Assembly: GCA_008632985.1 (NCBI GenBank)
Contig: QPGO01000077.1
Coordinates: 310,001-374,000, forward strand
From: Psammoneis japonica
Taxonomy: Eukaryota
Length of the DNA stretch: 64,000 nucleotides
Reading direction: 5' to 3'
How positions within the stretch are numbered: the stretch's first letter is position 1; every line of letters begins with the position of its first letter. Position numbers and translations under genes: made by a program. This document shows, piece by piece, positions 2,959 through 52,254 of the stretch. The notes beneath the pieces were generated by a model, which did no database searches, was not told the DNA's origin, and saw only the letters and a list, made by a program, of their open reading frames with translations.

Positions 2959-5029
2959 TACCTGCGGTGTAGCGTGTATCCCTGTTCGGCTCTACGGCAC
3001 ATTCGGTTCACGGCTCACTCAAACGGCAGTGCCTTTGACCACAGCACAGCAAGCAACTTAAGTTGCGTCGAGATTGCGTTCCGAAAACAGAATAATGTAA
3101 ACTATTTTGTAGCATCGCAACATCATAGCAAGAAAGAATTTTCGGCTTCCGCTACGGCAGCTTCGCGGTAGAGCCCTTCACCCTTCCAATCACGCAGCCC
3201 TCTGACGATTGCCATCACAATGGCGGAGACTTGCTTCCCAATGTTCGACAAAGAATGCGCAAAGGCCGAACCATGTCCCAGGAGGCAAAAATAGAAAATG
3301 AGCTCTAAAAGGGGGAACCAAATCAGAAGGCTCCAATCATTTGGCGTAAAACTGAAAAGGCTTCATCTGGATTGTTTCGACGCAAATGCAAGAAATCCAT
3401 TCCACAAAGCGGCAAAGACCGTTGCTGTGGCAAAAGAGCCGAAGGCATGTGGCCAAAGCAATGCACAAGCCAATGCACCTTGCCGATGTCTGAACAGGCC
3501 CTGGCCTTTGCTTCATAAAAATGTGTCTTTTGTTGCAGCTGTGCCAAAAGAGTCTGTGGGGAGCTTGGTCTCCTTGCAATGAGTGAGATGCCCCCATTGA
3601 CAATGACTGCCATGCTTCCCGCAAGTCCTGCAGAGATTGTCTCATGAGGCAGTGACAATCAACTGTGAAGCAAGAAGCAGCATTCCAAGAGGCTCCAACA
3701 GCTTCACATTCTGAACAAGTGATGCCAAACCAAACTTGATTCCCAAACTGGCAAAGAGGGTGCCAATCACAATCTGCAACTGCCATGCATTTTGTCAGTG
3801 GATGAGAAGTGCTTTTCCCTTGGCAACAATGCGCTCTGGAAGAAAACTTAAGGAGAGCTGAACCGCCAATGAACCAGAGAGCCAGCAGCAACAGTTTGCC
3901 TGTTCATGTGCAGCTTTTCTCTGCCATGATTTCCTCAAACCATTCCAGAGATGTCAGCCCAGCAATTTCAGCCATGGAAGTGCTGTGCAACACAGTGAGC
4001 TTGTGCAAGTGCATCTTCCAAATGGTGGTCCAATGACCTTGTGCATGGAATTGGTGGGCAATGGCTCATGTGGGGGGGAGTCTTGCGGTGTTTGAATTTT
4101 CATCATGGCATGAACAGAATCCCTCACTCTTGCATGAACATGGCAATGCCCACACAACCAATGAAAAGAAAGACCATTTTTCAGTTTGCAGATTGCACCT
4201 TGGCACCATTGTTTGCTGCGCACTCCCAGGCAAAGAGTCATCTCTGCCAGAGTGCCAAAGCTTCAACTCACCAGTGGAAATGAGCTGCAAGAAGCACAGC
4301 AGCAGTGTGCGCCAGCACATGAACATGCTCCAAAACACTCAGCCACTGTCAAAAGATTGCTGCCACCACATTTGCTCCACCAAAGCAACTGTGCTGCAAC
4401 TCTCTAGATGGCTGTCAGTCAGCCACCATCAGAGAGATCCACTCAATGTGCCCATCATGTGAACAGCAGCAGAGTGATGATGGCTCCACCCCCAGAAGCT
4501 TGCACTGCTGTGAATGGAAAATGATGGCATGGCAAGTGCAAAAATTGAGTTGCTCCAAAGTGTTTTCCCACAATGAAAAGTTGTTTATCTTGCAGGTGGT
4601 GACAAATGCCAGCAAAACATCAAGCCAAAAACACAGCGACATGCACCCATCAATGCACAAGCATCTGCAGGTGGGGAGCTCAGCAAAACATTGCTTTGCA
4701 GCTCTTTCCTGCAAGTGTGATCCAAAGAAAGCTCTCTTCTTCAAATGTTTCAAGAGGGCAGGCAAAAGCTCTGCAGCTCCTGAGTTTTTGAGTGCTGCTG
4801 ATCTTGTTGCTGGCAAAACCTGCACCTGGGGCACAACATGTGTGTCAGCTGCAGAGTGCTGGTGTGGCTGCATGTGATTTTTTGTGGTGTTGGGTGTCCA
4901 GGAAGCAAAGTTTGTGCTTTGTGCCATGCATGTTGTGTCATGTGTTGGTGTCTTTGTTTTTCTCATCCATCAAGAAGAAGCAGGCTTCTCTGGCTTCTGT
5001 CAACCACACATTAAAAAGTGAAGGTGCCC

Positions 5030-7600
5030 TGTTGGAACATCAGGGTTGGAGGTGGTTTTTACAGGACAGACAAAGTTGCATTGGAAGACACACTGACGAT
5101 TGTGGACAACATGGCAAATTTGCATTCGCAGCTTGGTTTGATTGGCAGGTCTTGTGTTCACTTTTTAGCTTCTGTGCCTGGTTGACACAGCAACAGCAGT
5201 TGACAGCATTGGCAAGAACATGTTTGTGAGCCACACCACAGCAAGTTTGGGATTGGCAAGGCTGAATGTGCACCAGTCAGCAGGCCACAAAACTCCAACA
5301 CAGAAGCCAAAAAGTCACAGCGTGACACTCAAAGGAGCAGTGTCATCAAAAGAAGGCTGGAAAGTCAACAGGAATCCAAAGACAAGGCTGGAAAGTTGAT
5401 GAGAATCTAAAGGTGTGCCTCGTGTTGGCAGATCACAGCAAACAAGCCAGCTGAACAAGGGCAAAGAAACACAATCTCTGTGGAGGGCCTTGTTGCTGTA
5501 AAAAGTAAAACTGTCAAGGATTTGCTGAAAGAGGGCACAGCAAGGTTGTGTTGGGGTTGGTGAGACAGAGTGCACAGCTGTTGGTGAGTCATGAATTTCC
5601 AACATGCGTCCCCAGAAATGTGGCAGACAATGACACAGCTGAGTGCAGAAGCATGAATGATTTAAAGGAGTGGGTGTGTGACACCATTGCTTGCCAACAA
5701 GTGGACAACAGGCACCAGAGGGTTGCATGGAAGCCATGAGGAAGATTGGCGAGTGTGTTGGAAGAATGCTTGGGCCAGAGATGCAAGCACTGGCATCTCT
5801 GAGGCAGGAGAGCATGCCAAAAGAGCCGGGTTGCTCATTGGGAGACACTGCATCAGAGAAGGACAAGGCAAGCTGGGGCAAGCAATGTGCAATCTCTGTG
5901 CAAAACAACAGAGTGCAATCTGCAAGACACAGGAAGCCATGTGTGGAAGACTTTCATCACAAACTTGAAGGAGTGATGGAGTTCACAAGAGTTGCAAAGG
6001 AGTGAGGTGTGGCAGCACTGCTGGACATTCTCAAGTCAGATCTTGTTTGATGCAAATGAGAAAACAAACCAGCATGTTCAGGCAGTCAAGGCTTGGAAGC
6101 AGTTGGTGCTCCGTCATCAAGACAAAGAAGAAGTGCTTCAAAATCATTGCAGTTGGTTTGCAAGCATGGTTGAAGTGGTGGAAACATCCTGTGGCAGGAT
6201 TGTCCCAGAAAAAATCACCAAGAAAGAAGATGGGTTCAGCAAGGACATGCTGGTCACATCCAGAACAAAGAAAAGAACAAGTTGTTGTTGGTGATTCTAG
6301 TGGAAGGTGCCAATGAATGTTGGCATGAAAAGACCCACATCAGCAGTTCACACCAGGGGTGTTGACACTTGCCCCAATTCAGCTGAGGAGGCACCACAGG
6401 TGTTGGACACCTGTGGGACCAACAAGAAACCTGATGGTGCAAGTTTTGTGCAGAATGAGAAGAGGCAGATTAAACACTGGAAATGACACACCATTGCCAA
6501 GTTGGGATGACAGGCAGATGGTTGCACAGAAGCCACAAGGAAGTTTGGCAATCTTGTCAAAAGAACACTCAGGTGGGAGATGCAGGCACCAGCATCTCCA
6601 AGACAGGAGAGCAAGCCAAGAAAAGAGCTGGGTTGTCCATCAGGAGACACCACATCAGAGAAGAACAAGGCAATCAGGGGCAAGCAATGCAGCCACTGTG
6701 CAAAACAGAAGAGTGCAATCCACAAAAATGCAGAAAGCAAAGGCATCCATGTCATGGGGCAATTTGCAAAAGCCAGCACCTGTGGCAAACTTGAAGGAGT
6801 GACAGAGTTTGTGAGAGTCACAAAAGAGTAAAATGTGATGGCGCTGCTGCTGGACATGCTCAAGTTGAACTTGCTTGATGCAAACAAGAAGAAAAACCTG
6901 CATGTCCAGGTGGTCAAGGCTTGGAAGCAATTGGTGCTCATCATCAAGACAAAGGAGCTGTGCTTCAAGACCATTGCAGTTGGTTTGTGAGCATGGTTGA
7001 AATGGTGGAAATGTCCTGTGGCAGGATCATTCCAGAAGAGGTGATCAAAAACGAAAATGGGTTCAGCACCAATGCTGATGATGCCCAGAGCAAAGAGAGG
7101 AGCAAGTTGTTGGCAGCTCACATTGGGGGTTGACATGCATCCCAGCTCAGACAAGGAGGCACCACAGGTCATCATGTTGGGTGCCTGTGGGACCAACAAG
7201 AAACCTGATGGCACAAGCTTTGTGCAGAACAACAAGAAGAAGGTTGCATGCTGGAAGTGTGACAAAGTTGAACTTGCAAGGAGAAATTGTCCTGTCAATT
7301 GACTGATGACTCATGTGAAGGAGTGAGTTAGAACATCAGGGTTGCTGGAGGCAGTTTTCATTGTGCGGACAGACAGAGTTGCAGTGCAAGATGTGCTGAC
7401 AATTGTGGACAATGTGGCAAGTTCATGTGCACAACTTGGTTTGAATTGCACAGGTGTTGTGCTCACTTTTTAGCTTCAGCACCAGTTGACATGCCAACAG
7501 TGGTTGACAGCACAGGCAACATGTTTGCAAGCCACACAGTGAGTTTGGGGTTGGTGAGACCAAACACGCATGCTGGTTGGCAAGCCATGAAACTCCAACA
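5030..7600 (+). mobile_element. Degenerate non-autonomous LTR retroelement (Ty1/copia CoDi-like gag, no pol)
   Basis: Homologous ~270-bp LTR-like repeats at 5030-5300 (TGTTGG...CCAACA) and ~7326-7600 (ends AACTCCAACA). Purine-rich tract before the 3' LTR. Gag-like peptides (DKASWGKQ, KLEGV, VQAVKAWKQL, SWFVSMVEMVE) and a decayed zinc knuckle CWKCDKVELARRNCP. Confidence 0.65.
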
Positions 7601-10559
7601 GAAGGTTGCTCACAAGAGCTTCCATGCAGAACAACAGGTTTGTGTTGGCACAAAATCAGCTGCTGAGCAAAAAAAAAAGAGCAAAAACAACAAAAGCACA
7701 CAGTGCAGCAAAAAATCCTCAGCACAAGGAAACCAAAGAGCCACGTCATTGGAGGCAAATGAGGTGTGGACCCATGCTGGTGTGGAAGAAATGGATGCTG
7801 CCTGCTGTGGCAGCAAAGCTGGCACAAGTGGAGAAGAGGAACAAGACCCACACTCTGGTGGAAAAAGCTGAGGGGAGCTGGCCATTGTTTGCCAAAAACA
7901 GACTGTCCAGCCAGACAAGCCCTGCTCAAAAAGATTAAAACAAGGAGCATTCAGGCACACAGGGCTGCACAAAAGACTTTGGCACTGCACTCCTCCTTCC
8001 CATCATTGTCATGAGACACAGGATGAGAGTGCTGTTCTTTGTGGAGCAGCAGTGTGCTCTTGGTCACATGGGGTGAGCCTGAAAGAATCCTGATTGTAAT
8101 GTGGGAAAACCTGCACTGGATTTTGCCAAATGGAGATTTGCCCCATTTCACCTCTGTGACAAAGAAAAAGCAGCATTGTGCAGCACTCTGTGGGGCTTTT
8201 TGGAGAGATGACCAGAGGTTTGCAGGCACTTCTTCTTCACAGAGAGATGTCTGCTGCAACAGCATCTTTTCTGAGTGAAGCACAAGCTGAAAACAACGAT
8301 GCCCATGGCGGCAATCTCACAGGTGGGTTTTTCAGGATGCCAGATTTTTTCATCATGTTCAGCTCAAACTTCTCATCTGTGATGTTGGCAGAGCATGTTC
8401 TCCATGGTGCAGCAGATGCAGTTCATGGCTTGCTCAAACAGAAGTGTCTTTGATTGTGTCACATCATGCAATCTGTGTTGTGTTGAGATTGCATTCCAAA
8501 AACAGAATGATGGAAACTGGTTTGCAGCATTGCACCGGTGCTGGGACAACAAAGAAATGTTGGCTTCCATTGCAACTGCTTTGTGGCAGAGCCCTTCACC
8601 CTTCCAATTGTGCACCACTCTAGATGTGACTTCACCTGGCACATGACAAATGGAGCAAACATGTCTTGCATGACACCGCATGCACCACCATGTGCAATTG
8701 TCTTGCCAAGCCCTCCTCGACAGGGGCATTTTGCTTCTTGGCATTCAGCCATGCACCTGAAATGAACAGCTTTCTCCATGTTGTCTAAGAAATGATCAAA
8801 GCAAATCACAACAAATCAATTGCATTTTCCAAGAGACCAAGCTTTTGAATCTGATTTGAAAGAAACCACAGCAAGACAGAAATCACCACGCCACTGCCAA
8901 GGAGACATCTCACCCCTCCAAGGAGGCCCCTGGTTGGTCAGCAAGACAACTCAAGTGTTAAATGAAACAAGTGAGGACAAGCAGCAAAGAACTCTTCTGG
9001 GAACCTTGTTTCCAAGCACCAAGGTGCGGTTCTTGGGTGGAAGAGAGGCAGCAGCATGTTGCGCCATTTGGCTCCATTGAACATGTCAAAACAGCACCTG
9101 CCCAATCATCACATTCTGAAAATTCCCAAATTGACTTGGCCCTTGAGCACATCAAAGACTTTTCATTGCTCAACCTCTGCAGTGAGTGTTCACGACAATC
9201 TGTCTCTTGGCTCTGCAGTGGAAAATTGGGCTGTGCACACAACTCAAAATGGTGTCTCTCTGTTGTTCTTTCCATTCTTCTGTTCACAGGCCAATGATGA
9301 AGCATGTCTCCAAGGTGGAAAAGAAGCAGCCAGCCCTGAAATGCTAAAGACCTGCCATTGCTGCTGTTTGAGTGTGGTTGTTGCTTTTGTGCAAGACAGC
9401 CATTTCACAATGGTGCGCTGGTGTGTTCTTGCCCCCCCACAGATTTCAAAAAATGATTTGCTTGCTGCAATGCACAGAAGAAGTTGATGTGAATTGAGGC
9501 AGCCATCAAATTGTTGTCCCTTCTCCAACCTGTGTGCAAGGTCAGCACTCTGTTTGTTCCATCCAAGAAGCATTTGTTCCAGTGGCTTGCAATGGCATCT
9601 CATGGATCATCTCATGGTGGCATTGTCTCAATGAAAAAATTGCTTTTCTTGCACACATGATGACAAACAAAACAACAAAGGCAGCAACACCAAACCAACA
9701 AGAACATGAAATTTTGGTCAGTGCATGAGGAGCAGCTGCACATGGCAAACTCATGTCCTGTGCAACACTCCATCACTCTCTTCTTGCACAGGCACACACT
9801 TCACAAGAGAAGAAGATCTTTTCAAATGTGTTTCAACAGGACAACAGAGATAGAAGCTCTGGCTCCTGGATTTTTTGGAGCTCCACAGTTGTCAGCTGGT
9901 GTGTCTCTTGGCTGGGACATGTGCCAGCATGTCTCAGCTGTGGCAGCATGCCTGTTGTGCGTTAAACCTGAAGCTGGATTTCTGTGCAGCAGCATGTTCC
10001 AGGAAGTGAGTTCAGTGCTTCATGCCACAAATGTTGTTGTTTGTTGGTGTGCTTTGCTTTGCTGTGTTTGTCACAGCAGAGGCAGGTCTCTGGCACTGGC
10101 GGTTCCTTTCAGACAACAACTGCACACATCGCAAAACAAAGGTGTTGTTTTTCACAAGAATTTCACAAGTTTGCCAACACAAAATGTCTGCTTTGCAGCA
10201 ACAGCAGTCAGAGTGAAACCCATGGAAACCCATGGCACTGCAGGATGCTGATGAGGAAAATGACAATGCTGCAGAGCAAATGGCATGAACCTGTGGGTGT
10301 GGAAGAAAAACAGTGGTGGCTGGTGGTGCATGATTGCACTGGCGGCAAGCAACTCTGGAGAAGAAAACAGCAGCAGCTGCTGTTGCAAGTTGGCAAAAAC
10401 TGAAAAATTGACAATGACACCTCTGCCAGAAAAACATTGTTCACACAAGCATTGCTTGCTCAAGGTGTGACTTTGTGCAGAAGCTCAAACAAGCAGGATT
10501 TTTGTTGGGCACACACACAAGACTTTGGGGCCGGCACACATGGCTCACTGCGCGCTGGG

Positions 10560-10995
10560 TTTTTTTGTGGGATGCCAGGTTTTTCATCATGGCAAGAGCT
10601 CTGCTTGATTTTTAAAGATTTTGAGTTGAATGGCCAGGGCCTTGCTCTAGTGGCCACCGGTCTTGTTCCTCTCTCCACTTCAATTCTCCGTCTTTCGTGC
10701 CACTCTGCGAGGGGGGAATTCTTTTTTGCTGCCCTGCTTCTGCTGTGAGGCAACAAGAGCATGTGCTTTTCCTCTTGCAACAACAACATGCAGAGATTGC
10801 CAAATGTTGCTCGCCTCATGTGGTTTCTCTCACAACCCCACGAGAGTTTTTTGCAGGATGCCAGGTTTTTCATCATGGCAAGAGCTTTGCTTAATTTTTA
10901 AAGATTGAATTGAACTGCCAGGGCCTGGCTCCAGCCACTGGTCTTGTTCTTCTGCACTGTTCAATTCATTCTCCGTCTTTTGTGCCACTCTGCGT
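10560..10995. repeat. Diverged ~150-bp direct repeat, two copies (10560-10710, 10848-10995)
   Basis: GGATGCCAGGTTTTTCATCATGGCAAGAGCT...ATTCTCCGTCTTT-GTGCCACTCTGCG occurs twice; a short related piece lies at ~8330. Confidence 0.85.
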
Positions 10996-11169
10996 GAAAA
11001 TCTCGGGCGGTGTCGGCGGTGTTCGTTGCATCTGTCTCAGTCTCTGCCGGATGGTTTTCTACGATGATCCTGGTATGATCTTTTCGTATGTAGAAAATAT
11101 ACCTATCTAACGTACAGTTGCCGACGACGCGTCTCCTCCGGCATTTTTTTCTCGTTTCTGAATCTCACC

Positions 11170-18009: not shown

Positions 18010-18118
18010 TGTCAAGGGGACACATTCTTTCTTTGGTAAGTTCATTGTCAAAGTGCAAGGATTGTTCACAGGTGACACATCATGGCACATGCCGCGGCGC
18101 GCCACAGTCCACAGTTAA

Positions 18119-18608
18119 GGTGGTACGGGTACAAAAGTGGGCCAGATTCTACGCACGTAGAGCTTAGTATGTTTTCTACACAAATCGCCAAAGTCGGCTC
18201 GCCAACTTGAACCCTCTCCAGGACGATGGAAACTTGGACATTTCACATAACAAAGCGTTTGGACTACTTAATTACACTCCCCTCGACTTGTTTATGAAGA
18301 GAAGTTACAAGTTTCCATGGGTTTCTCGTTTTGTATAGCTCTTTTAAACTCGAACGTCGCGATTTTGGCACCTTTCTGATTTGATTCGTTATATATCCTC
18401 AGAAACCTATGAAAACTTGTAACTTCTCTCCCTAAACAAATCGAGGAGAGTGTAATTAAGTAGTCGAAACACTTTGTTATGTGAAATGTCCAAGTTTCCA
18501 TCGTCCTGGAGAGGGTTCAAGTTGGCGAGCCGACTTTGGCGATTTGTGTAGAAAACATACTAAGCTCTACGTACGTAGAATCTGGCCCACTTTTGTACCC
18601 GTACCACC
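18119..18608. mobile_element. MITE/foldback element with ~208-bp inverted arms and TTAA target duplication
   Basis: TTAA|GGTGGTACGGGTACAAAAGTGG ... CCACTTTTGTACCCGTACCACC|TTAA. Arms near-perfect; ~75-bp spacer. Confidence 0.9.
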
Positions 18609-19029
18609 TTAACATATAACAACGCGCCAATTTTTAGTCGAAGGGTTCCTCAGATTGATTCCCGTTTGAGAGATGTGATGGCGCTTTTCGTTCCATGACG
18701 ACTGAGAGAAGAGACTCTCCTCCCTTCTCTCGGTGTTGCAGTTTTGAGTTCTGCCTTTTACAATTTCTACTCACACACAACTGCTCTTACAATGATTGGT
18801 TGCAAAGTCTACACCGGTAATTTACAGCAGTAGTATGTTAAAGGGCGCACAAACAAAAAGATCAACCGTGATAGGCAAAGAAGAGGCTTCACTGACATCC
18901 ACTTGTTTTAGTCGAAGGGTTCCTCGCACAGATTCGTGACTGAATTTCTTTTTTGCCTCACAAATTGAGCACAGATCAATCAATCATTCATTCAAATTTT
19001 TTTCACACAAGAAGAAAGAAAATAACACA

Positions 19030-21149: not shown

Positions 21150-22800
21150 GGAACTTATGCAGAAACGAATAAGGCATGCACAAAGCCGTTTCTCAATGTT
21201 CCCATGAGAATGATGTGGCCACACCGACAAGAATTGAAGAGACGATTGGATCTAAGTTTGTTTACAAGGTGCATTGTTTGTTGCCATCTTTGTCAGTTCA
21301 GTTATGTCCTCCTCGAGCAGCTGGGACATCCCCCTGCATGCAAGAGAGTGGGTTGTCTGCATCTGCGCCAAGACAGCCACAGCAGCAGCAGCAGCACAGA
21401 GAGGAGTGAGTGCTGGGTTGTTTGCCAAGGAACCCCCTTTGGCGCCTCTCTGCTCTGTGCCATCCTTTCATTGAATGCAACTGGCACAGTCCCTCAGTTG
21501 CTGGGCAGTCGTTGCTGGGCAGTCAACAGCATTGCAAAGGAGGTTGCATGAGATTGGCTTTGTTCGTGGGCGGCGCTCAGCTGGCGAGGCTTTCTTGAGC
21601 CTTTGTTTTCCACAAAAAGGATGGTGTGGTCATCTCGCAAGTGGCTGCAACAACCCCATCACATGGATTTTTCCCTCTGCATGCATTGACAAAACAGAGC
21701 AAAGAGACTGACTGGGAAATTGTTGAGGGCTCAGAGGGCCTGTGCGGGGGTGGGGGTGGGGGGCCTTTTTTCAGCTGGGGGCCTGCCCATCAAGAGCAGA
21801 TTTGACCTTGCTGGGCTGATCAAGTTGTCAAAAAAGGCCTTCACCTGAGTGAGTTTGACTGGATGGATGCCAAAGCCAGCAGCAGCTCTCTGGTTGACAG
21901 CTGGTTTGAGCTGCCCCTTCTTGCCATTGCTGCTTTGTCTCTCTTTTTGCTGCGCCACACCACCACAGAGCTGCAAAAAAAAAAACGCTGCCGCCACTGC
22001 TGCAAATGGCAGCACCCACTTCTTGCTGAATTACCTCAATTGCTTTGTCATCAGAAGCTTGGCAATGTGGGGAGGAGCAGAGGGCAGGGGAGATGGGCAC
22101 CTGGCACAGCAGCTGAAGAGCGGCTCTGAGCTCCAAATGAAAGAAGGAGGGTGTGTGGTGCTGCAGAAGCACAGCTCCTGCTGAGCACTGTGACAGCTGT
22201 TGCTGACCTTCCACAAACTGAAATCCAGAGGAGAGCAGCAATGTGTCAACAAGAGCTGCTGCAAGAGAAAAGCTTGCAGCCAGAGAAACTCACGGGGTTG
22301 GCAGCTTTTCATCCCTCCTGTCTCAGTTGCTTGTCACAGCTGGTGCTGTGCCTTGCTCTGGTGTGCACTCTTTTGACAGAGTTGTGGAACAAGATGGGGT
22401 TGCCCACTGCACCACGAACTCCAATGAGCACAGCGCATGTGTCCTCTTGCTCCTGGCGCTGCTTCTTGTGCAAAGAAATGATTTCACGCACACGCTCTTC
22501 ACAGTGGAAGAGTCATGTGTGGGATGGAGTGTGGCATCTTGAAATGTCAACCATCATCACCAGAATGTCACAACTCAATGGCCGGTTTGTGAAGTGTGCT
22601 TTCCAACTGTTTTCGAGTGTCGCTTCAAAGACTGTGCTGGTGACTCTTGAGCTGGAGCACACACGATGCACATTGGCAACTCATCATCATCAACAACATC
22701 CACAAGGAGTGGCTCCTTCCTTTGGAATTGTGGTGAGTTCAAGGGACAGACCTCGCACAAGTCACCGAGCGAGCATGCAGCTTAGAGCTTACCCCACAAC
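21150..22800. mobile_element. Second island of degenerate CA/TG-rich repeat DNA, family unidentified
   Basis: Same CpG/TpA-poor composition as 3-11 kb; no recognisable ORF; lies between divergent MPI and SYS1. Confidence 0.6.
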
Positions 22801-25338: not shown

Positions 25339-25467
25339 TTGTCGAACAAAATCTCGTCAAAGCATAGTAACCTCTCGTGACAAGGAATGAGGAACGGAAG
25401 ATGACGACTGAGCAGGAAAAAGCGAAGGCCATGTCCGCCACTGACGACGAAGGTCGAAGGTCGCCAG

Positions 25468-25552
25468 ATCAGAAAACCGCGATTTTAGTCACGAATCACG
25501 TAGATTTCTACAAAAGTGGTACTGACGACATTGGCAATTTCAGTCGTGAGTT
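25468..25552. repeat. ~85-bp diverged direct repeat, copy 1 (upstream of HDAC)
   Basis: ATCAGAAA...TTTTAGTCACGAATCACGTA-ATTTCTACA...GGCAATTT..AGTCGTGAGTT recurs at 33993-34081. Confidence 0.8.
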
Positions 25553-25813
25553 CGATGCATGCCGTTTCTATGTAGAGTTTCTATAAAATGTCTTTTCGGT
25601 AGAAGACAAGCAGGTGTGGTAAAAGGGTCTGCGGGAAATCGCGGATTGAGGCGAAAAACGCACATAAATCTTGCAGAAATGTGACGAATGCGGGTCCGGT
25701 CTTACTTATCTTACGGACGCCTGCCAGGTAGGCCTAAGCTGTCGAAGCCAATTGCATCTACAATGTCAGGCTAGAGATTACAAACTGTGCTATTTAGAAA
25801 AACAGAACAATGC

Positions 25814-27128
25814 CTACAAGTAATCATCATCATCTTTGAGGTTGCCCTTGCTGTCCGAATCGGAGTCCATGTCATCACAGCCGCTGACGTGCTCTCCCGC
25901 CGCCGCTGCACGTCCGCACTGTGCCTCACGACTGCGCCTCGCTTCCTTCTTGGCAATTGCAGCATCTAGAGGGGACTGACCAAGAAACTTGATCCTTTCA
26001 ACTGCCTCACCCTCTTCTGGTGGCTTCTCCACCGCCACCAGCTCCATCGAAAGGAGCATGTGACCTTGCGCCTGCTCCACAAGTTCTTCGTTGTCATGAA
26101 CAAATGCTTCGAGCTTCCAACCGGCCTTGCTGCTTGTAGAACAAAAATCACTCTCACAGGGGAATGGAAGGCGAACAGTGTGGGGGCGGCAGAGAACCAC
26201 ACGGTGTTTGCCGTCACCAACGGTCTCTTCAATGCCTTGAGACTTGAGCAGCGCCTGCCCGGCTTGCTCGATTCCGCTTTCCTTCAGGACTTGGTCTTCT
26301 GTAGAGAGCCTAGAAGTGAGAACAGATTCGCGCACACGATCCTTCTTAAACATCCAAGAAGGGATGCGCTCATTGACAATCACCTTGGCGCCGCAATCAG
26401 ACACCTTCGGGTGCCAGTGTGACGTGGCGAAAGGCGGGACAAGGACATCCACGGTCACGTGCATGCGCTTGTCGGACGCCGCCCACGGAGACGCTAAGAA
26501 AAAGTGGCCACACTCACGAGTCATCACTCCCTTCTTCACAAAGGCGTCTGCCTTCTTGTTGCTCCCCACCTTCTTCTTGCTAGAAGACGAAATCGCAGCA
26601 GATGACTTGAACTTTGACGCAAGGTCGTTGTTCACGTCTTGGGACTTCTTGGGGGCAGTCTTTGTCTTGCCCGGCATGCTGGTGCCAAATTCCTCGTCAC
26701 TTGAGCATGCGCCTTCGTCTTCTGAGGATTCGTCTTCGGTTTCCTCTTCCTCGCTTGACTCCTCTTGGTCTTTCACTTCTTCCTCGGTGCGTCGCTTGGT
26801 GCCTGTGGTGAGTCGTGCAATCAAAGCAGATGCCGGCAGACGATGGCATGAGCACAAGAACAACAAAACAAGCAAGAATGGCATTGTTGTGGTGCTCACC
26901 TTGCTTCCGCCTGCCTGCAAGAAGTTCGTCGACTTCCAACTGCTTGCACTTCTTGCGGCACTGCTGAGCGAAAGTCTGACACTTCGGAAGGTCACTGAAG
27001 TGCTTCTCGTACACCTTCTTGACGTGTTGCAAGTCAATGAGCTGCGGATCAATCTCACCAGCTTTGACAAGCTCTGCAAGCCTTTTGTTGTGTTCTTTCG
27101 TCCAACGAGCAGAGCTGCCGTTGCTCAT
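25814..27128 (-). pseudogene. Harbinger accessory gene (putative DNA-binding N-terminus, acidic tract), likely two exons, mutated
   Basis: Exon 1 from MSNGSSARWTKEHNKRLAELV...; long exon 2 open to 25814. Lies inside the TIRs; almost no Tyr codons. Confidence 0.55.
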
Positions 27129-27897
27129 GGCGTTCGCCGTGGCTTCCTCCTGTTGTGGGTTGTGGGCCGTGTTGAGTGTGCCGTGTGAACAGCAAACAGC
27201 AGAGCTGCTTTGGTTTTTCTGAAACGATCGATCAACAAGACTGACACCAATGGACAAATGGCGCGATCTCCAGTGTGTCTCTATGACGAACTCGTGAAAA
27301 CGACATTTTTATCACACATTTTTGGGCCCCCAATTATGTGGGCTGTTTGGTTGTGTCACAGCTTTTCGACAAAAAACTTTGATGGCGCAACTTTGGCTTT
27401 GCATGCAACCCGGACATTACGCAGAATCACCGCTGGCAGCTACGTCACACAAAGACCCGGATGTAAAGCTTTGGTCACAGTTTTTCGCTGCACATCCGGG
27501 TTCTCTAAGCTCGTGTAGAAAGTGTGCTGAGAATCCTGCAGGATTGAAGAAGAAACCCGGATGTGCAGCGAAATGTCTGTGGCCACAACTTTCCGTTGAG
27601 CCAAAGTTTTGTCACACTTTCTAAAAATGTGTGGTAGAAAACGCGCGAGCTCGCCTAAAAAAAAATGCGTCTTTTCCATGCAAGAGCTGCAAAAACATCC
27701 AACTGCATCACGTCGTGCACCCAGCAAACGAGGGATCTACGCATCATGGAGGCAGCATCCCACGTGCGCACCACGCAGCAGTGCCACTACGGTCCACACT
27801 GGAAGACATCCCAGTCCCACCAATCGTTGAGATTTTGTTGTTGCGCTTCACGCTTCATGCTGAGACAACATCATTTTGCTCCGGCCCACCACTCGCC

Positions 27898-28901
27898 ATG
27901 GCCGCTTTTCAACCAGATAAAAAGAGGATGCACTGGCTTGCCCTCGGACTGCAGGACCTCATGAATTTGGGGTGTGGAATGATGAACAGAGGCGACAAGA
28001 AGTTTGGCGCCACAATGACCGAGGACAGGCGTTTTCGTGAGTTTTTTGGTTGCGGCCCAATCGTGGCTCTCGCGCTGTGGAACCTCCTTGTCCACCACGA
28101 CGTGCTGCCCCACGGAGCAAATGCCTGCCACATGCTGTGGGCACTTAATTTTTTGAAATCTGATGGCAAGGAAACTGACCTTGCCGGCAAAGCTGGGGGA
28201 GTCGACGAAAAAACTTTCCGAACGTGGAAGTGGCCAATGATTGAGGCCATTGCATCACTCGAGCCACACTTGGCAAGTGCCCAATTGCGACAACATTTCC
28301 ACATGTTTCAAAAAATTGATTCTCACCCGCATCATTTGTGTTGTTGTTTGTTCTGCCCAGACAATTTGGGAGAATCGCCGCACTGGTGACGTCAGAAACG
28401 ATTGTCCAGTCACTGTGGACGGAACAGACTTTCGTGTCCCGAATCACGGCAGGAAGTTTTACTCTCATAAATTCAACGACTGCGGACTTCGTTACGAAAG
28501 CAGCAGCATGCATTTTGACCGGTCACATTGTGTGGATTAATGGGCCCTTTGCGCCTGGCGTGTACAACGACTTGGACATTTTTCGATCGGCATTGAAGAC
28601 GGAACTGGACAAGGGGGAATGCGCAGAGGCTGACGATGGGCACGTGGGTGAGTCCCCCATCTATGTTAAGTGCCCCAGCAGTTTTGCAAACCCGAAGGAG
28701 ATGGAAGAAATGCAGAGGCGTGCTCTTGATCGACAGGAGACGTGCAACGAACGCTTCAAAAATTGGACAATTCTGGAGAAAAGGTTTCGCCACAAACCAC
28801 TGTCGAAGCATGCCGATGCATTTCGGGCTGTGGCTGTCACAACACAGCTTGCGATTCAAAATGGTGAACCGCTTTTTAATGTAGATTACAAGGATCTATA
28901 A
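27898..28901 (+). pseudogene. PIF/Harbinger DDE transposase (intron ~28273-28360, frameshifted, mutated)
   Basis: DRRFREFFG, HMLWALNFLK, DEKTFRTW, VTVDGTDF, YSHKF...LRYE, GHIVWINGPF..G...D, EADDGH, RQETCNERFKNW..L...FRH. Confidence 0.85.
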
Positions 28902-29603
28902 TTAGATGGGACAATTTTCTTTAGAAACATCATTTTTCTTTATTCCAGCCCTGCAAACAGACAGTGAACCAAAGTTGGTGCCATCCACAGCAAATTGGTG
29001 TCCACCAGTTGAAGGTGTCAAGCCTGGCACAGCACCAATGCTCGGCGACGGCGCAGGGACTCGACGGCTTTCACGACATGCCGCAGTTTCCGATTCTGAG
29101 AACATGATGGTGCGCAAGGCAACCTCAAAAGCAACAATGAGTGTTTCTATAAAGGCCTGGGCACTGTTCTCTTTTTGCAAAACAGCACAGTTCGTAATCT
29201 CTAGGCTGAAATCGCACCGGTGCCACTGCCAGATGCAATGTGTTGTCACACCACTTCCAACATTTCTGCTGTAGATTTTTTGCGTTTTTCGCCTCAATCC
29301 GCGATTTCCCGCAGACCCAAAAAGGATGTTTGTTGGATGTGATCAAAGAAAAACAAAATGCAACAGTGGCGCAGGACCGAACGAGATGGGTCATGATGGC
29401 TGAGTCGGCCATGCATCATGGAAGCTGGTCAGTTTTCGCGCGAAATCTTTGCGTGGAATTTCTGGATTCATTCTGCTCGAGCCTCTGCTCCAACAGCTAG
29501 AAGTGGCTGCCAGCCACTTTGCTGCTCCATGTCGATCCTCCACAACACATCAACAAAGAGCGCCATGAGAATCCAGTGGGTGGGCTGTGCCTGTCTCTGA
29601 AAG

Positions 29604-31469
29604 ATGGAGGACGCCACTGCCAAGGGCAGCGCAAGAGACGAAGAATTCATTGAAGACTTGGCGGGTGCGATCCTGAGTGGGACTGTGGGCGAATTTGTCA
29701 AAGACCAACGGGATGATGAGTTCGCTGCCGATGTAAAAGCCAACAACAATGACGAGTCTCTTCTGTTTCTCAACTCATTGACTTCCTTCAAGGAGTGCTG
29801 GAAGCTCCAAACTGGACATTGTGACGCTCCGATCATCGTTGACGTGGAACTCACTGGTCAGGAAGTTCATTTCCCTTCTCTTGAAGATCACTTGGTCAAT
29901 CTAGTGGCTTCTTGCACATGCCACCACCCTGAACTGGAGGATGCCAAGAACAGCACAACACACATGAGAAACAATGAGAAAGTGGCAATGTTCTTCGGTT
30001 CGGCCTTTGTTCATGGCTGCACTGGGGATGCGGGACCTGATGCGTTGTCCACAGCAGCTAGACACTTGCACGGTGCCATTTCCATGCACTGTTGTGGAGA
30101 CAATTGCCTGGATGACCCCATGCACTGGTTGCTTTTCATGGTTTGGTTTCAGCTTGGAATGCACTGCACGCTCTTCTCTCTTGCCGAGAAAGAAAAAAAT
30201 CCCAAGTCATTTGCGCAAGCAAGCCACTCACAATCGAAGAGTTGGATTGAGGAACACCCTTTGAGGACGTGACAGTGAAACCTCCGGAAAAGGCATTCTG
30301 CATTTTTGTTTCACATTGCTGGCTTGCAAAGGGCCACCCAGATCCCAACAGGATGGAAAAAGATTGGCTCCTGCCACTTTTCAAGCGCACACAGTCACTT
30401 GTGGATTTTCTTGGCAACCCGGCAAAAAAGGAGCTGTCGGCGATTGCGCGAGACTGCGCGGACTGTTCTGCCACTGGAAGTGCAAGCAAGGAAGAAGGAA
30501 ATGATGGTGCCACTGCCCTGGCTTCCGTCACGGCAGTGGCCACATCGGTGGAGCTCTTCTGGGCCACATTCTTCCTTGCCCGTGGGCAGAAAAATGTGCA
30601 GACATGGTGTGATTTCCAGTCTGTGCCTCAGGGACAAGATCCTGCTTCCAGAGAGCTGCACAAGAAATGTCTTGATGAAATTGAGTTGGTTTGCCAAACT
30701 GTGCCAGCACTTGCGATCCCGACTTGTGACTGCTTCTCCCAAGCCTGGTGCATTTTTGAGTGCCTCCAGTGCCTCATTGGTGAACAACCATTCCTTCGGT
30801 TTACAAACGGGGCAGGTGAAGTGTCGCAAGGGATTTGAAACAACTGGATCCTTCAAATGGAAGGGATCCATGGCAGGTTTTGCACCCTCATGGAGCAGGG
30901 AGACAAGCCGGGAATGGTGCTTGAGCAAGTCGGACTCCAGTGTGCAAACGGGGGGGGGGGGGGGCGACCTGGCATTTCTTTCTGGAGCTCTTGAGAGTCA
31001 ATCAAAGGCAGGACGTCACTGCAACTGTCTGGTGAAGATGCATCCCTTGGAAATGGCACATTGCATTTTTCTCAATGACATCATTGATGACAACGATCGA
31101 GTCGAAAAGTGCCGTGCACCATTTGAGTTTTTGACAAAGCTCCGCGCGTCAGCGCGTCTTGTCATTTCTGACACCCCGCAGATTGATGGCAGCCATGAAT
31201 GCAAAAATGCCGTTTCTCTCCAATGGAGCCATCCTCCCGTGGGAGTGGAATGCCTTCCAGGTGCAAAAGAAGATTGGGACACACCTGGATTTGAGGATGA
31301 CATTGTGAAGCTGTTTCAGATGATGCGATCCATTGGAGCATTCCATCGGCACGGGCAAAAGAGTTGTGATGTTGAATGCGATCAGCTCAAAGTGTCGTTG
31401 GAGGACGCGGTGAATCAAACTCCTTGGCACACCATTAAAATTTGTTTTGGAAGCATGAGAACAAGTTGA
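29604..31469 (+). pseudogene. Decayed gene with HET-like (heterokaryon incompatibility) domain
   Basis: FVSHCW...HPDP, WCDFQSVPQ and CFSQAWCIFEC match the SHxW / WxDxxxxPQ / YxxRxWCxxE pattern once Tyr/Arg are restored. Frameshifts ~30270 and ~30830; no Tyr in the overlapping ORFs. Confidence 0.6.
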
Positions 31470-31850
31470 CAGCAAAACGATCTCCATGCTTGGCACCATT
31501 GTCTGAACAAACATTGTTTTTCCCGACTGTGCGCAACATTGCGATTTTGCTTGCACAACAGTGCTCATCATCCAAGACAGTGTCATTGCCCCTTGACATG
31601 CCTCTCACATTTCAACTCCAACGAACCCACTCGCACACAAGACACACCTTGTGTTGCTCTCATCCATCATCGTTCTCTGGCAGATGAGCAAACTCTCACA
31701 GCAACTGCTGCTGCCACACCAAGCAATGAAAGACGTCATGTCCTCTTGTTGGGCCTTGGCATTTAGTGCACACTTCCTGTCCTTTGCATTCTCAAGTCAA
31801 ACAGTGGCGTGGCAGTCCATGTTGCCTTTGCCACCAGTGTCGGTTGGACC

Positions 31851-31934
31851 GACATTCCATTGCTGAGTCGTGACGATGAAAACTGCATTTCAATGACATT
31901 CCATTGCTGTCGTGATGATGAAAACTGCATTTCA
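31851..31934. repeat. Tandem duplication of ~43 bp
   Basis: GACATTCCATTGCTG(AG)TCGTGAYGATGAAAACTGCATTTCA twice. Confidence 0.85.
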
Positions 31935-32614
31935 GACCGCGGTTTTTTGCTGCACAGAAAACAAACGGGGCTGGTGTGAGCACCCCAGCAGCGAGTGTAA
32001 ATGAACAAGTGTTGTCTCTTCGGGGGAAGAGTGTGTTTGTTGAATGTAACCAAAGAAAAACAAAATGCAATGGCGGCGCAGGATCGAATGAGACGGGTGT
32101 TTGGACAACTCGGAGAGCATGCGTCAGAATTTGATTGGACAGTCGACTGCATCCCACGACATGTTGAATGCTCCCAACCATGGCGTTCCTTGATGGCATG
32201 TTCAAGAAAGTTTTGTCTTTGATGGCCCCAATGCTCAATGATCCACACGCTGGACATCCGTTTCTGGGGGACTCTTCCGCTTCTCAGAGTTGAAGGATTT
32301 TGGGGGGGATGACTGGCATGTGTCCATCAGATTGATTTGTCCAACAGTGCAATCAGAGGAAGTGAATTAATCCACAAAAGTCAAGCCTCAAAAATTGGCA
32401 CCAGATTTTGAATGTGCACCATCTGCAGGTTTTGTGTGATTCAAAATGAAACAGCAGAATGAATTGGCTGGGAGATCATTGCCATTCAGCTGTCTTGTTT
32501 TGTGTGGCACCAGAAGGGGACAATTGGTGCAAAGTGGCTGCAACAATGCAAAACTGAAACTGGGGTGTGTGCATCATTTTGCACCTGGCTCTCCAACACA
32601 TCTCCTTTGCTTTT

Positions 32615-33480
32615 TCAGCAGCTGTTCACAATGTTGCATTGCCGAGAAGCGAGTGGGCTAAACCAATGCACCGAGAGAGCAAAAAGAGCAATGGCTGTTA
32701 CAAAACTGATGGGAACAGGTCCATTGTCCATGCAAGAAGCAGAAGGAGAGCTGCCAGGCACAGCTTGCAGCTTCCTGAATGGTGGGTGCAGTGGAAGGAG
32801 CAGTTGAAGAAATGACTTCCGGGACTGTGGGGGGTTCAGAAGGAGAGGGGAAGAAACATCAGCCATGATGATGGGAGACTCGGAAAGAGAGGTGACTGTG
32901 GGGGGCTCAGAAGGAGAGGGGGGGGAAACATCAGCCATGACAGTGGGGGATTTGGAAAGAGAGGCAGAAGGAGAGGAGGAAGAAACTTCAACCTTGTTGA
33001 CAGTTGGGGACTCGGAAGGAGAACTGGAAGCAATGGCTCCCCCACGACCGAGGGGGAAGCAGAAGGGGAGCTGGAAGGAAATGGTCCATCAATGGTGGGT
33101 GCAGTGGAAGGAGTGATGGGAGCATCTTCTTTGCAGGTGCTGGTGAAGTTGCATCTGCCCTGAGCAGTGTCAGCCATTGGACAGCCCACCAGCACCTCCA
33201 ATTCATCCAAACAACCTTCACAGCAGGGGCTGGAGCAGAACTCGATCACATCACATGCGGGCTTGAAAACCCCACAGCTGGTGCCTGGGGGCTGAGGGAG
33301 AATGTCAATGACACTGAGGCAATTTTCACAATCCATCTCCTCTTGATTTATGAGAGTGCATGTGAGGGCTCTGTCTGTCTCAGAACTGCACTCATTTTGA
33401 GACTCGGCTGTCGTGGCAGTCAGAAGAGAAACAACTGTGAGGATCCAAGGGGTGTTCTTTGTGAAAAGCTCCATCATCAT
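32615..33480 (-). pseudogene. Decayed secreted/surface protein: signal peptide, Cys-rich domain, Pro/Ser repeats, C-terminal hydrophobic tail
   Basis: MMMELF...WILTVVSLLTATTAES, a Cys-rich block, PSTAPT/PSASPS repeats with ~70-bp tandem units at 32820-32965; frameshifted. Confidence 0.5.
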
Positions 33481-33992
33481 TGGTGTGTGTTGCAACAAGA
33501 AGCATTTTGGAAGGGTTTGGTTGTCGGGGTTTGGGTTTTGTCGAACGATGTTGGACGTGCTCGGCAGCAGCGGTGTGCTGGTGCCGCCAGAGTCCAGAGT
33601 GACTCTAATTCGGCATGGCGCAGATTGCACCCTGACCAACCAGCATGCAGCCAGGGAAAAAGTGGTGCAACAGCAGTGGCGCCCATGCTGGTTTGCTCAT
33701 TGATGAGATCTCCTTGGAGATCTGCAGCCATCTGCTGGTGCGCAGTTTTGGCTTTGTCTCTCTTGAGAGAGAGGAGGTGTGAGAGGAACATTGTGTGTCT
33801 TTCATCATGAGTTTTGTCATTGGATCAACAGGAGAAGGAGGAGCAGTGCTCTGTTGTTATCTCTGCTGCATCTTCTTGTGTCCTTTGCTCCTTTTGTGCT
33901 TCCTGTGGATGGGGTGGCACCACTTGTCCAAGGGCAGGAAAAACGGAAAAACCCGTTTTGGTTAAATCAAAGAGGGAAGGCGCTTCCATGAA

Positions 33993-34081
33993 ATCAGAAA
34001 CGCGCGCTTTTAGTCACGAATCACGTATATTTCTACAGAACCTGTACTGTCAGTGTCGGCGGCAATTTTAAGTCGTGAGTT
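33993..34081. repeat. ~85-bp diverged direct repeat, copy 2 (upstream of deaminase gene)
   Basis: Matches 25468-25552 in the same orientation. Confidence 0.8.
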
Positions 34082-34197
34082 GCAGCGGCCGCTCTCCGGT
34101 GCGCCAGTGCAATGAGTTGTCGATCTTTCGTCGGCGTTGCGCAAAAACGACGGCCCGAGCCTATCAGTAATGTAGTAAAAACGAAATCGACGTGAAA

Positions 34198-45201: not shown

Positions 45202-46039
45202 TATTGTTGGTCATGGTGTCGAAAGAAAAATTATATGGTATGTTATCACATCGCGGCGCGGGAAAATAAGACGATGACGTCATGTCGACGTCATTTCTTC
45301 TACTCGCACCGTCCGTCCGCCACACCACACCAATTGTCGTCCGATGATACCGTACCGTTACACCCAAAATTCTACCCAAGTAGTATTTTTCTACTGGAAA
45401 GTGGAATTCTCGTATGTAGAACTGTCAATACGGTGTTGGTATCTTCTAAAAAGATCTACCGTACATCCACTGTTTATTCCACTCAGGTAGAAGGCACAGT
45501 ACCGGTAGAATTTTCGGAGCCAAAAATTCTACCCTGCGCGCCCCTTTCGCGCGATCTAAACCGTCTGTCCTTAGTGAGGTCGGGTGCGACGGTATGAACA
45601 AAAAAATACTGAAAGTTCTAGTACTCGTCTCAATGCGGCATCTCAACCATGAGCGTCGCCGAGTACAACCCCAGCAAATGTGCCAATGCCAACTTCATAT
45701 ATTTTGGCATGGAAAGCAGCACTCACAGGTGTCCTGAGTAGAGCCTAAACATTCGTGCTACTTGTGGCGAAAACAGACGGATGACTTGCACCACTTCTAA
45801 CTTTGACAAGCTCTAAAGCACCTATTTGAGATTGTTATTGTGAGTTCTATGTTTAAATGGTACTAAACAATTGCATTAGACAAAAGAATTGTCAGCATCT
45901 CATCGCACTTCCGCCAGCTTGACAAGAAAACAAGCTGCTCCCCAGCGCTGAATGCACGACCAAAGGTTGCAACCGTTGACATTTCTAGATTGTTCCACAT
46001 CCCCGGCTTGAGATGCATTTTTTAATAACTATTTGGTCC

Positions 46040-52215: not shown

Positions 52216-52254
52216 ATCCGTGTTATGCTGAGAGTTCTAGTTTACTTTGTGAGA

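Follow-up and report, generated by a model that had tools for sequence, protein, structure and literature searches.

Loss of TpA at 5'-TAY-3' sites in inserted DNA of the diatom Psammoneis japonica points to a probable host-directed editing

What strips nearly every TA dinucleotide from certain pieces of a chromosome that stand between ordinary genes? The question is posed by a 64,000-nt stretch of nuclear DNA of the diatom Psammoneis japonica (GenBank assembly GCA_008632985.1, contig QPGO01000077.1, positions 310,001 to 374,000 of the forward strand), referred to here as the window and numbered from its first letter. The window contains three blocks of inserted DNA, A, B and C, the last consisting of two adjoining insertions, C1 and C2. 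All are depleted of TA, and all except C1 are depleted of CG as well. The preferred reading, which is given a probability of about 0.72, is that inserted DNA has been rewritten in place by two context-specific transition processes, and that the one acting on TA is a host-directed editing of invaders.

The TA and CG counts of each block were compared with those expected from their density in window DNA outside the blocks, with P values from the Poisson distribution. Block A (counted over 3500-10880) contains 26 TA compared with 272 expected (P = 4e-82) and 43 CG compared with 440 expected (P = 9e-131), and CA and TG are over-represented about 1.9-fold. In 2-kb steps between 4001 and 10000 the observed/expected ratio (o/e) is 0.05-0.10 for CG, 0.05-0.07 for TA, 1.85-1.97 for CA and 1.86-1.94 for TG. 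An initial annotation, made by a model from the letters alone, had described about 7 kb at 3400 to 10,500 as poor in CG and TA with CA and TG dominant; these counts bear out the description, and the block is real, but that range holds just one of the three blocks, with B and C lying outside it. The block is complex sequence and no simple satellite. Its left edge is sharp, falling within about 30 bp (approximately 3485-3516), and its right edge is graded (approximately 10530-11060). The depletion is even across the block, although the block has no reading frame. The AA o/e of 1.14-1.23 is the same as in the remainder of the window, AA and TT are unchanged, and G+C is unchanged because the loss of CG offsets the loss of TA.

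Blocks B and C2 show the same TA deficit and a smaller CG deficit. Block B (21320-22770) has 1 TA compared with 53 expected and 26 CG compared with 86, and C2 (29320-33950) has 15 TA compared with 171 and 132 CG compared with 276. C1 (25830-29300) has 43 TA compared with 128 expected and 192 CG compared with 207, which is no depletion of CG (P = 0.16), and its G+C is slightly higher (0.51-0.52). For all blocks pooled the o/e is 0.09 for TA, 1.67 for CA and 1.65 for TG. Steps of 2 kb outside the three blocks mostly have a TA o/e of about 0.4-0.75 and a CG o/e of about 0.9-1.17. The outside TA o/e is 0.48 in open reading frames (ORFs) and 0.68 in the 15.0 kb of non-ORF DNA, where CG stands at 1.04 and RTAY (R, purine; Y, pyrimidine) makes up a normal share of TA (241 of 740). 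TA is thus depleted about 7-fold more strongly in the blocks than in either class of outside DNA, ORF or non-coding, a comparison that the initial annotation had proposed as a check.

The bases surrounding the surviving TA were compared with those of TA outside the blocks (n = 1734) by Fisher tests, all within this single 64-kb window. Eighteen of the 26 TA left in block A stand in the context YTAR and none in RTAY, versus 263 and 581 of the 1734 outside (P = 1.3e-9), in agreement with the initial annotation, which had noticed that surviving TA is mostly YTAR. For all blocks together the figures are 41 and 2 of 85 (P = 4e-12). The survival of individual tetranucleotides, strand-symmetrised over all blocks, is graded. 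ATAC/GTAT (0 of 106 expected) and ATAT (0 of 46) have vanished and GTAC is reduced to 2 of 58, ATAG and CTAC survive at 8-9%, ATAA and GTAA at 15-21%, CTAA at 32%, CTAG at 49% and TTAA at 60%. This grading indicates that a strand reading TAY is struck several times faster than a strand reading TAR. The difference is at least 5-fold, and the asymmetry between TAY and TAR, another of the proposed checks, is strong.

Mass balance was used to establish which base changes. C1, with its CG intact, was chosen as the cleanest case. Per kb, C1 has 11.8 fewer RTAY and 10.0 more RTGY plus RCAY, and 11.4 fewer YTAY/RTAR and 14.9 more YTGY plus RCAR; the alternative products, YCAY plus RTGR, are up by 5.3 only. 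The balance therefore assigns the change to the A of TAY, which is turned to G on the strand that reads TAY. A simulation, in which the window's non-block DNA was mutated from CG to TG or CA and from TAY to TGY at the observed survival rates, gave strand-symmetrised 3-mer frequencies that correlate with those of block A at r = 0.973, compared with 0.688 for the unmutated DNA and 0.921 when the opposite base was mutated, and the correlation for 4-mers was 0.957.

Duplicated segments provide the direction. Repeats were compared by BLAST in a purine/pyrimidine alphabet, in which E-values are miscalibrated, and only hits of at least about 90 bits were used. One segment of normal composition outside block A (2993-3205) has a depleted partner inside it (8408-8623), and the two are 73% identical in the ACGT alphabet and 91% identical in the purine/pyrimidine alphabet. 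Going from the normal to the depleted copy there are 5 TA>TG, 2 TA>CA, 8 CG>TG and 7 CG>CA changes, with 1 in the reverse direction (22:1). The pair 10561-10715 and 10847-11000 was rejected as an inside/outside pair, its 'outside' copy lying in the graded right edge and being itself partly depleted. Duplicates that both lie inside block A are 72-74% identical in ACGT and 90-92% identical in the purine/pyrimidine alphabet. They differ by 50 TG<->CA swaps over 985 aligned bp (51 per kb), with 37 transversions over the same length; with CG and TA together at 96-104 per kb outside the blocks, about 48-52 swaps per kb would follow if each such ancestral site had gone to TG or CA in one copy regardless of the other. 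Internal repeats of C2 (29319-29391 with 32026-32098, and a second pair at 32823-32967) likewise differ almost solely by transitions, 12 against 1 transversion and 12 against 0. Diverged tandem repeats outside the blocks (64-89% identity) have about as many transitions as transversions, 0-2 TG<->CA swaps and normal TA. Taking the background from the 3.8% pairwise transversions, the loss of TA and CG in block A is by arithmetic at least about 30-fold the per-base background.

The products in block A are strand-symmetric, with 879 CA and 828 TG. Strand-coherent tracts of the type left by repeat-induced point mutation (RIP) or APOBEC were looked for and rejected: runs tests on the order of CA and TG are weak (z = -2.4 in A and -2.1 in B), and runs tests on swap orientation between duplicates give z = -0.6 to +0.7. 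These observations support mutation in place as the origin of the depletion. They also support, besides the loss of CpG, an A>G change at 5'-TAY-3' that falls on both strands alike (read on the opposite strand, T>C at 5'-RTA-3'); the initial annotation had proposed such a process at TAY, and mass balance, simulation, the polarised pair and the similar CA and TG counts all uphold it. Its remark that the trend is opposite to that of fungal RIP also holds, as TpA stands 10-20-fold too low and CpA is in excess.

The TA and CG losses can be separated by comparing the blocks. Expressed as -ln(survival), by arithmetic on the counts above, the losses of TA and CG are 1.09 and 0.07 in C1, 2.4 and 0.74 in C2, 4.0 and 1.2 in B, and 2.35 and 2.3 in A, where TA loss is saturated except at the resistant YTAR sites. 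The ratio of the two losses is not constant, and the two processes are therefore separate. In C1, which looks the youngest of the elements, two thirds of the TA is gone and CG is essentially untouched. The loss of TA is read as fast and early, and the loss of CG as a slow, separate decay. The latter would be the decay of methylated CpG in silenced mobile DNA: CG>TG and CG>CA occur in nearly equal numbers in the polarised pair, as decay of 5-methylcytosine predicts, and transposable elements of Phaeodactylum are described as CpG-methylated in a DNMT5a-dependent manner (PMC9998398). The loss of CpG is uneven over contexts. Across all blocks GCGC is not depleted (48 observed, 40 expected) and accounts for 8 of the 43 CG surviving in block A, CCGG is about half depleted, and TCGA, ACGG and other CpG contexts fall to 0.25-0.33. 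The sparing of GCGC could reflect the preference of a methyltransferase or local duplex stability.

Copy number was read from the summed contig word depth of a public sequencing run (X1), in which single-copy DNA has a depth of about 56-72. The core of block A (about 5031-7605) has a depth of 350-1640, and its contig joints skip or repeat about 775-830 bp, one unit; this core is a multi-copy family built of units of about 800-830 bp. The approximately 5.3 kb of block A outside the core is represented by two single contigs at single-copy depth and is depleted all the same. Repeats elsewhere in the window are untouched. A foldback element has a depth of about 2415, some 40-fold that of single-copy DNA, and retains a TA o/e of 0.87 and a CG o/e of 1.07; tandem duplications of 340-890 bp (43234-44120, 46018-46801 and 59197-59879) have normal TA and CG. 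Because high-copy and tandem repeats have escaped while a large part of block A, though single-copy, is hit, the process is not aimed at repeats as such, and the initial annotation's description of it as repeat-targeted does not stand. What the blocks have in common is that they are insertions between host genes, one of them a Harbinger-type transposon. As to the origin of the targets, C1 is a transposon, the core of A is multi-copy, and no domain or homologue was recognised for the rest of A, for B or for C2. Since non-coding DNA outside the blocks retains its TA, the process appears to be aimed at inserted or mobile DNA. Separately, the duplication at 59197-59879 is a 342-bp tandem duplication with 100% identity, lies in or beside a glycosyltransferase-41 gene region, and is evidently very recent.

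Table 1. Positions of the insertion blocks, the repeats used for comparison, and the genes next to the blocks.
Feature	Position in window	Strand	Description
Block A	3490..10970		insertion-like, 7.4 kb, nearly free of TA and CG, rich in CA/TG, without recognisable domain; between host genes
Neighbours of block A	1-2955; 11174-12847		GAF/cyclase gene (ORF); SdhA
Multi-copy core of block A	5031..7605		internal direct duplications, spacing about 800-830 bp
Core duplications	5716-6292 with 6515-7117; 6338-6485 with 7108-7259; 5031-5305 with 7327-7605		duplicate pairs within the core
Normal-composition copy	2993..3205		outside block A; partner segment inside the block
Depleted copy of 2993-3205	8408..8623		inside block A
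Foldback element	18114..18613		counter-example; 500 bp, 213-nt arms 96% complementary, 74-nt spacer, like a miniature inverted-repeat transposable element
Block B	21304..22782		1.5 kb, 1 TA, CG reduced; between host genes
Neighbours of block B			phosphomannose isomerase gene; SYS1-domain gene
Block C (C1 + C2)	25625..33985		between host genes
Neighbours of block C			histone-deacetylase-domain gene; A_deamin gene
Bracketing direct repeat, left copy	25461..25538	+	about 80 bp, normal composition
Block C1	25625..29318		PIF/Harbinger-type DNA transposon; TA strongly reduced, CG normal
Divergent genes of C1: ORF	25817-27124	-	
Divergent genes of C1: transposase	27625-28898	+	two frames
Block C2	29319..33985		insertion adjoining C1 on the right, TA almost gone, CG halved
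Bracketing direct repeat, right copy	33986..34063	+	about 80 bp, normal composition

C1, the PIF/Harbinger-type DNA transposon, has 43-nt terminal inverted repeats (25625-25667 and 29276-29318) with AAA flanking each side. The Pfam match of its transposase to DDE_Tnp_4 is weak (E = 0.0086), and the C-terminus of the transposase has 1876 homologues at E <= 1e-3. The transposase is young or well kept, judging by the 54 of 62 conserved columns that are intact. Four of the eight changed columns fit TA>CA or CG>TG: V>A twice (GTA>GCA), R>C (CGC>TGC), and a Y>H change within the conserved motif D-D-G-Y. Depletion follows the genes, the TA o/e being 0.13 and 0.22 in the two genes and higher, at 0.27-0.91, in the end segments and between the genes. 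The two ends retain 21 TA, not one of them in the context RTAY. This gene bias would fit targeting through chromatin state or through small RNAs derived from transcripts of the element. C1 has inverted repeats and moves by cut and paste, which places the editing on DNA and not on an RNA intermediate. ADAR-type hyper-editing of RNA by way of retrotransposition was rejected on the same ground, together with the similar numbers of CA and TG and the lack of strong strand clustering.

The initial annotation had also stated that Tyr codons appear replaced by Cys and His codons. Tyr is indeed low in the open frames of the blocks, at 0-0.3% (1.6% in one) versus 2.4% in host ORFs, and Cys and His are raised in most; this scarcity is a trivial consequence of the absence of TA. 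Direct replacement could be traced only in the C1 transposase and some of its environmental relatives, Cys or His being present at 2-3 of 3 conserved Tyr columns in 4 of 145 homologue representatives. Replacement of Tyr by Cys or His in the N-terminal transposase frame was considered and rejected, as the one conserved Tyr column that can be aligned there holds Asp and the signature does not fit.

Block C2 is the older insertion of the pair. The bracketing direct repeats enclose the entire 8.4-kb C1+C2 insertion and are 80-86% identical; at about 80 bp they are much longer than a usual target-site duplication. An open frame in C2 (32839-33696, minus strand, 286 aa) has a signal-peptide-like start, a Cys-rich middle and Pro/Ser-rich repeats. 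It contains 6.6% Cys and 0 Tyr and has no Pfam hit, and it may be a former host-type secreted-protein gene trapped in the block. Pfam searches of 112 block ORFs gave 3 sub-threshold hits only, with none in the 54 block A ORFs of at least 80 aa, none among the ORFs of block B and none in C2. Homologue searches with ORF 6351-7310 (minus strand) of block A and ORF 30279-31466 of C2 found none, and no viral hallmark was found in blocks A, B and C2. Among the flanking genes, SdhA has only diatoms as its best named relatives, which are 82-88% identical to it (Chaetoceros, Seminavis, Fistulifera and others).

Elsewhere in the window, 50528-55651 holds histidine-utilisation genes clustered in a eukaryote. 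An arginase-family piece (50528-51433) is followed by an amidohydrolase (51376-52212), and one ORF (53558-55651, minus strand) fuses an aromatic amino-acid (histidine) ammonia-lyase domain to a urocanase N-terminal domain, the urocanase continuing in 52258-53145. Contigs of another run (X2) cover parts of genes only and none of the blocks, and no reading of expression was drawn from them.

Relatives of the C1 transposase in metagenomes show whether low TA belongs to the transposon family. A scan with an 11-sequence transposase alignment as the query led to 80 loci being fetched, and 78 of them have a TA o/e of 0.40-1.08. Low TA is therefore no intrinsic trait of the family. The remaining two environmental contigs carry the TA-poor, CA/TG-rich footprint of the blocks, with its YTAR bias. 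The 5999-bp contig L068 has an o/e of 0.09 for TA, 0.64 for CG and 1.61 for CA+TG, 18 of its 35 surviving TA are YTAR, and a 290-bp island (3448-3736) keeps 12 TA. Contig L052 has 1 TA in positions 1-1233, few up to about 1624 and dense TA afterwards, and its composition turns normal close to the end of the transposase match. In both contigs TA depletion is strongest over genes and weaker elsewhere.

The process is possibly still active, and the evidence for this is suggestive only. Over the 5.3 kb of single-copy block A, the contigs of run X1 differ from the window by 3 substitutions only, TA>CA at 4586 and CG>TG at 8889 and 10130, each of them a forward change at a target site that had survived. 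Outside the blocks, the 21 listed run differences comprise 4 forward, 6 reverse and 11 other changes.

A process of this kind has been described in the chlorarachniophyte Bigelowiella natans. According to the preprint of Mettrop et al. (bioRxiv 10.64898/2026.01.13.699255), 231 of the 302 nuclear single-nucleotide mutations in mutation-accumulation lines fell in just two regions, an integrated giant-virus one and a virophage one. Of these 231, 230 were A>G or T>C and every one of the 230 hit a TpA, the rate being about 6e-7 per site and generation. The same preprint reports 124 clusters of TpA-poor, CpA+TpG-rich windows in that genome and an enrichment of DDE-endonuclease and reverse-transcriptase domains among low-TpA genes. 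Its authors put forward adenine deamination as a means of defence, name an ADAT2-like candidate, cite DNA editing by amphioxus and trypanosome ADAT2, and quote a preference of ADARs for a 5' U. The initial annotation knew of no description of such a process as a genome-defence system; this preprint proposes one. A term search of its main text returned no mention of CpG, trinucleotide context or diatoms. The literature search found no report of TpA hypermutation in a diatom, and no follow-up to the Bigelowiella work was recognised, judging by titles and abstracts.

The preferred mechanism starts with insertions into a nuclear chromosome of the diatom, between host genes, namely a transposon, a multi-copy tandem-repeat family and others. 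A fast, locus-targeted A:T>G:C process at TpA would then convert the A of 5'-TAY-3' to G on either strand that reads TAY. RTAY, a target on both strands, would vanish, YTAY/RTAR would become YTGY/RCAR, and YTAR would partly survive. A slower process would convert CpG to TpG or CpA by deamination of 5-methylcytosine in silenced, methylated mobile DNA. For the first process the preferred chemistry is that a deaminase, TadA/ADAT2-like or of another kind, turns adenine in DNA into inosine; the enzyme would be guided by chromatin state or small RNA. The natural target of TadA is U-A-C in the anticodon loop of tRNA-Arg, which would fit TAY. Host-directed editing is the preferred reading because the TpA target, the direction of change and the apparent confinement to foreign DNA are the same as in Bigelowiella natans.

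The window contains a single gene for a polynucleotide adenosine deaminase, which starts about 200 bp to the right of block C. This A_deamin (ADAR/ADAT1-type) gene at 34171-35887 (plus strand; pieces 34171-34818, 34887-35465 and 35417-35887) covers Pfam profile positions 16-328 and lacks a domain for binding double-stranded RNA. It is probably the housekeeping tRNA enzyme ADAT1. It was rejected as the enzyme responsible, since it looks like an ordinary tRNA enzyme and its adjacency carries no statistical weight.

The same targeting and context could be produced by another chemistry, in which a modified thymine of 5'-RTA-3' (oxidised, for example, to 5-hydroxymethyluracil or a base-J-like derivative) mispairs with G, or error-prone patch repair of silenced chromatin puts G opposite T at TpA; on double-stranded DNA either route leaves the TA>CA/TG footprint that adenine deamination leaves. 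On sequence alone, A>G on one strand and T>C on its complement look alike. CpG and TpA are both self-complementary pyrimidine-purine steps, as would be expected for symmetric base-modifying enzymes, and collateral errors made by a CG-restoring repair would be in line with C1, where TA is lost and CG is intact. A polymerase-eta-type change of WA to WG (W, A or T), however, would deplete ApA, which is kept in block A, the runs tests show no strand-coherent tracts of the kind left by repair patches, and adenine deamination is the chemistry favoured by the authors of the Bigelowiella preprint (bioRxiv 10.64898/2026.01.13.699255). A different chemistry is thus considered unlikely. GC-biased gene conversion would share the net AT>GC change at TA steps and the slightly raised G+C of C1. 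Confinement to TpA, the difference of at least 5-fold between TAY and TAR, and the unchanged AA/TT and block A G+C make the change anything but uniform across contexts, the outcome by which the initial annotation had proposed to recognise gene conversion, and this explanation is not favoured. A sequencing or assembly artefact does not agree with the match of the public-run contigs to the window, although that run is possibly not independent, or with the same footprint in the unrelated metagenome contigs L068 and L052. Gene conversion and artefact together are given a negligible weight.

Untargeted change has also to be weighed, in which an ordinary mutation spectrum biased at TA and CG carries old, non-functional DNA to equilibrium and selection holds the rest. 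The blocks other than C1 have no intact recognisable genes, and the loss of CG grows with apparent block age, as such drift would have it. It is made very improbable by the TA, CG and RTAY kept in the 15.0 kb of non-ORF DNA, by the balanced transitions and transversions, few swaps and normal TA of the diverged tandem repeats outside, by the left edge of block A, and by a loss that exceeds the background at least about 30-fold. Alternatively, the composition could be intrinsic, the elements having arrived with, or evolved, an avoidance of UpA and CpG in their transcripts, as is common among RNA and small DNA viruses, for example to evade host nucleases or sensors. Suppression of CpG and UpA with an excess of CpA and UpG is a known viral pattern, and the depletion of C1, L052 and L068 is strongest over genes. 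An intrinsic or selected composition is highly doubtful in view of the even depletion of block A, which has no reading frame, and of duplicates whose TG<->CA differences are as dense as all the CG and TA sites expected. The normal/depleted pair is moreover directional, conserved residues are damaged, including the tyrosine of D-D-G-Y, 78 of the 80 metagenome family members have ordinary TA, and the TAY/TAR asymmetry has no obvious rationale in translation or RNA stability.

Several points weigh against host-directed editing of invaders. A foreign or mobile nature is established for C1 and, through copy number, for the core of block A only, and no Pfam hit in A, B or C2, nor any homologue of the one ORF searched from each of A and C2, indicates what these blocks are. 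The expected densities are those of host DNA nearby, from which the ancestors of the blocks may have differed, and ancestral states are reconstructed and not observed, save in one 213-bp pair. A model of two independent strands puts the survival of mixed sites about 2-fold too low by arithmetic. In the C1 transposase two other conserved Tyr columns hold T and D, which is outside the signature, and two Tyr are retained; most TA is kept at the ends of C1 (12 in 192 bp and 9 in 420 bp). The 'live' differences number just 3 and may be alleles, as the run is possibly from the assembly's own sample. The precedent is one preprint that is not peer reviewed (bioRxiv 10.64898/2026.01.13.699255).

Point-mutational destruction of invading DNA has long been known just as fungal RIP and as APOBEC and ADAR editing in animals, and a TpA-specific AT>GC version was first reported in 2026 from one chlorarachniophyte (bioRxiv 10.64898/2026.01.13.699255). 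The diatom footprint extends the phenomenon to major marine primary producers and to a second major lineage of the stramenopiles, alveolates and Rhizaria (SAR), and TAY/RTA is a sharper motif that any candidate enzyme has to reproduce. A natural adenine editor of double-stranded genomic DNA would be of interest to base-editing technology. In algal genomes and metagenomes such blocks also distort gene prediction, through frames without Tyr or stops, as well as the annotation of repeats and binning by composition. A wider proposal is put forward tentatively, as one possibility: diatoms might have an active, chromatin- or RNA-guided defence that edits adenine at TAY to a base read as G early after insertion, long before methylation-driven decay of CpG shows, is homologous to that of Bigelowiella and is ancestral to much of SAR. 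L068 and L052 might then be the first glimpse of an 'edit-to-death' immunity widespread among eukaryotes and centred on a natural DNA adenine deaminase.

Comparison with known systems places the footprint closest in kind to the Bigelowiella process, which likewise converts TpA to TpG or CpA only, is confined to discrete regions, foreign there and putatively so here, and leaves CpA+TpG-rich DNA in otherwise ordinary surroundings. The organisms differ, a rhizarian there and a stramenopile here, and mutations were measured there, with rates raised episodically by orders of magnitude in mutation-accumulation lines, whereas here the process is known from its footprint alone. As given in the preprint, the Bigelowiella nucleocytoplasmic large DNA virus region has a rho of 0.45, compared with near-saturation here (TA o/e 0.05-0.09), and its main text does not mention the TAY preference or the CpG loss seen here. 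By this comparison the process appears to be the same in kind as that of the preprint and hence would not be categorically new. New here are its presence in a diatom, the TAY/RTA motif, the near-complete saturation, and a TpA loss that runs ahead of and independently of CpG loss.

The other systems share parts of the pattern. RIP in Neurospora and other fungi also ruins mobile DNA in place by heavy, context-specific transitions on both strands within limited blocks. RIP changes C to T mainly at CpA and so creates TpA, whereas here TpA is destroyed and CpA/TpG is made; RIP requires duplication, whereas here duplicates of 340-890 bp are untouched and single-copy DNA is hit. The decay of 5-methylcytosine at CpG, with its symmetric CG>TG/CA products in silenced mobile DNA, covers the CG half of the pattern. 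It spares TpA and does not account for the advanced TA loss of C1 with CG intact, and GCGC is undepleted here. ADAR and APOBEC3 in animals likewise direct clustered, deaminase-driven transitions against viruses and repeats, but they act on RNA or on single-stranded intermediates of reverse transcription and leave a strand bias, unlike the strand-symmetric changes in a DNA transposon seen here. The 3' neighbour preferred by ADAR is G, compared with a pyrimidine in the blocks. TadA and ADAT2-ADAT3 deaminate adenine after U or T, as the process in the blocks would, and are the candidate enzymes.

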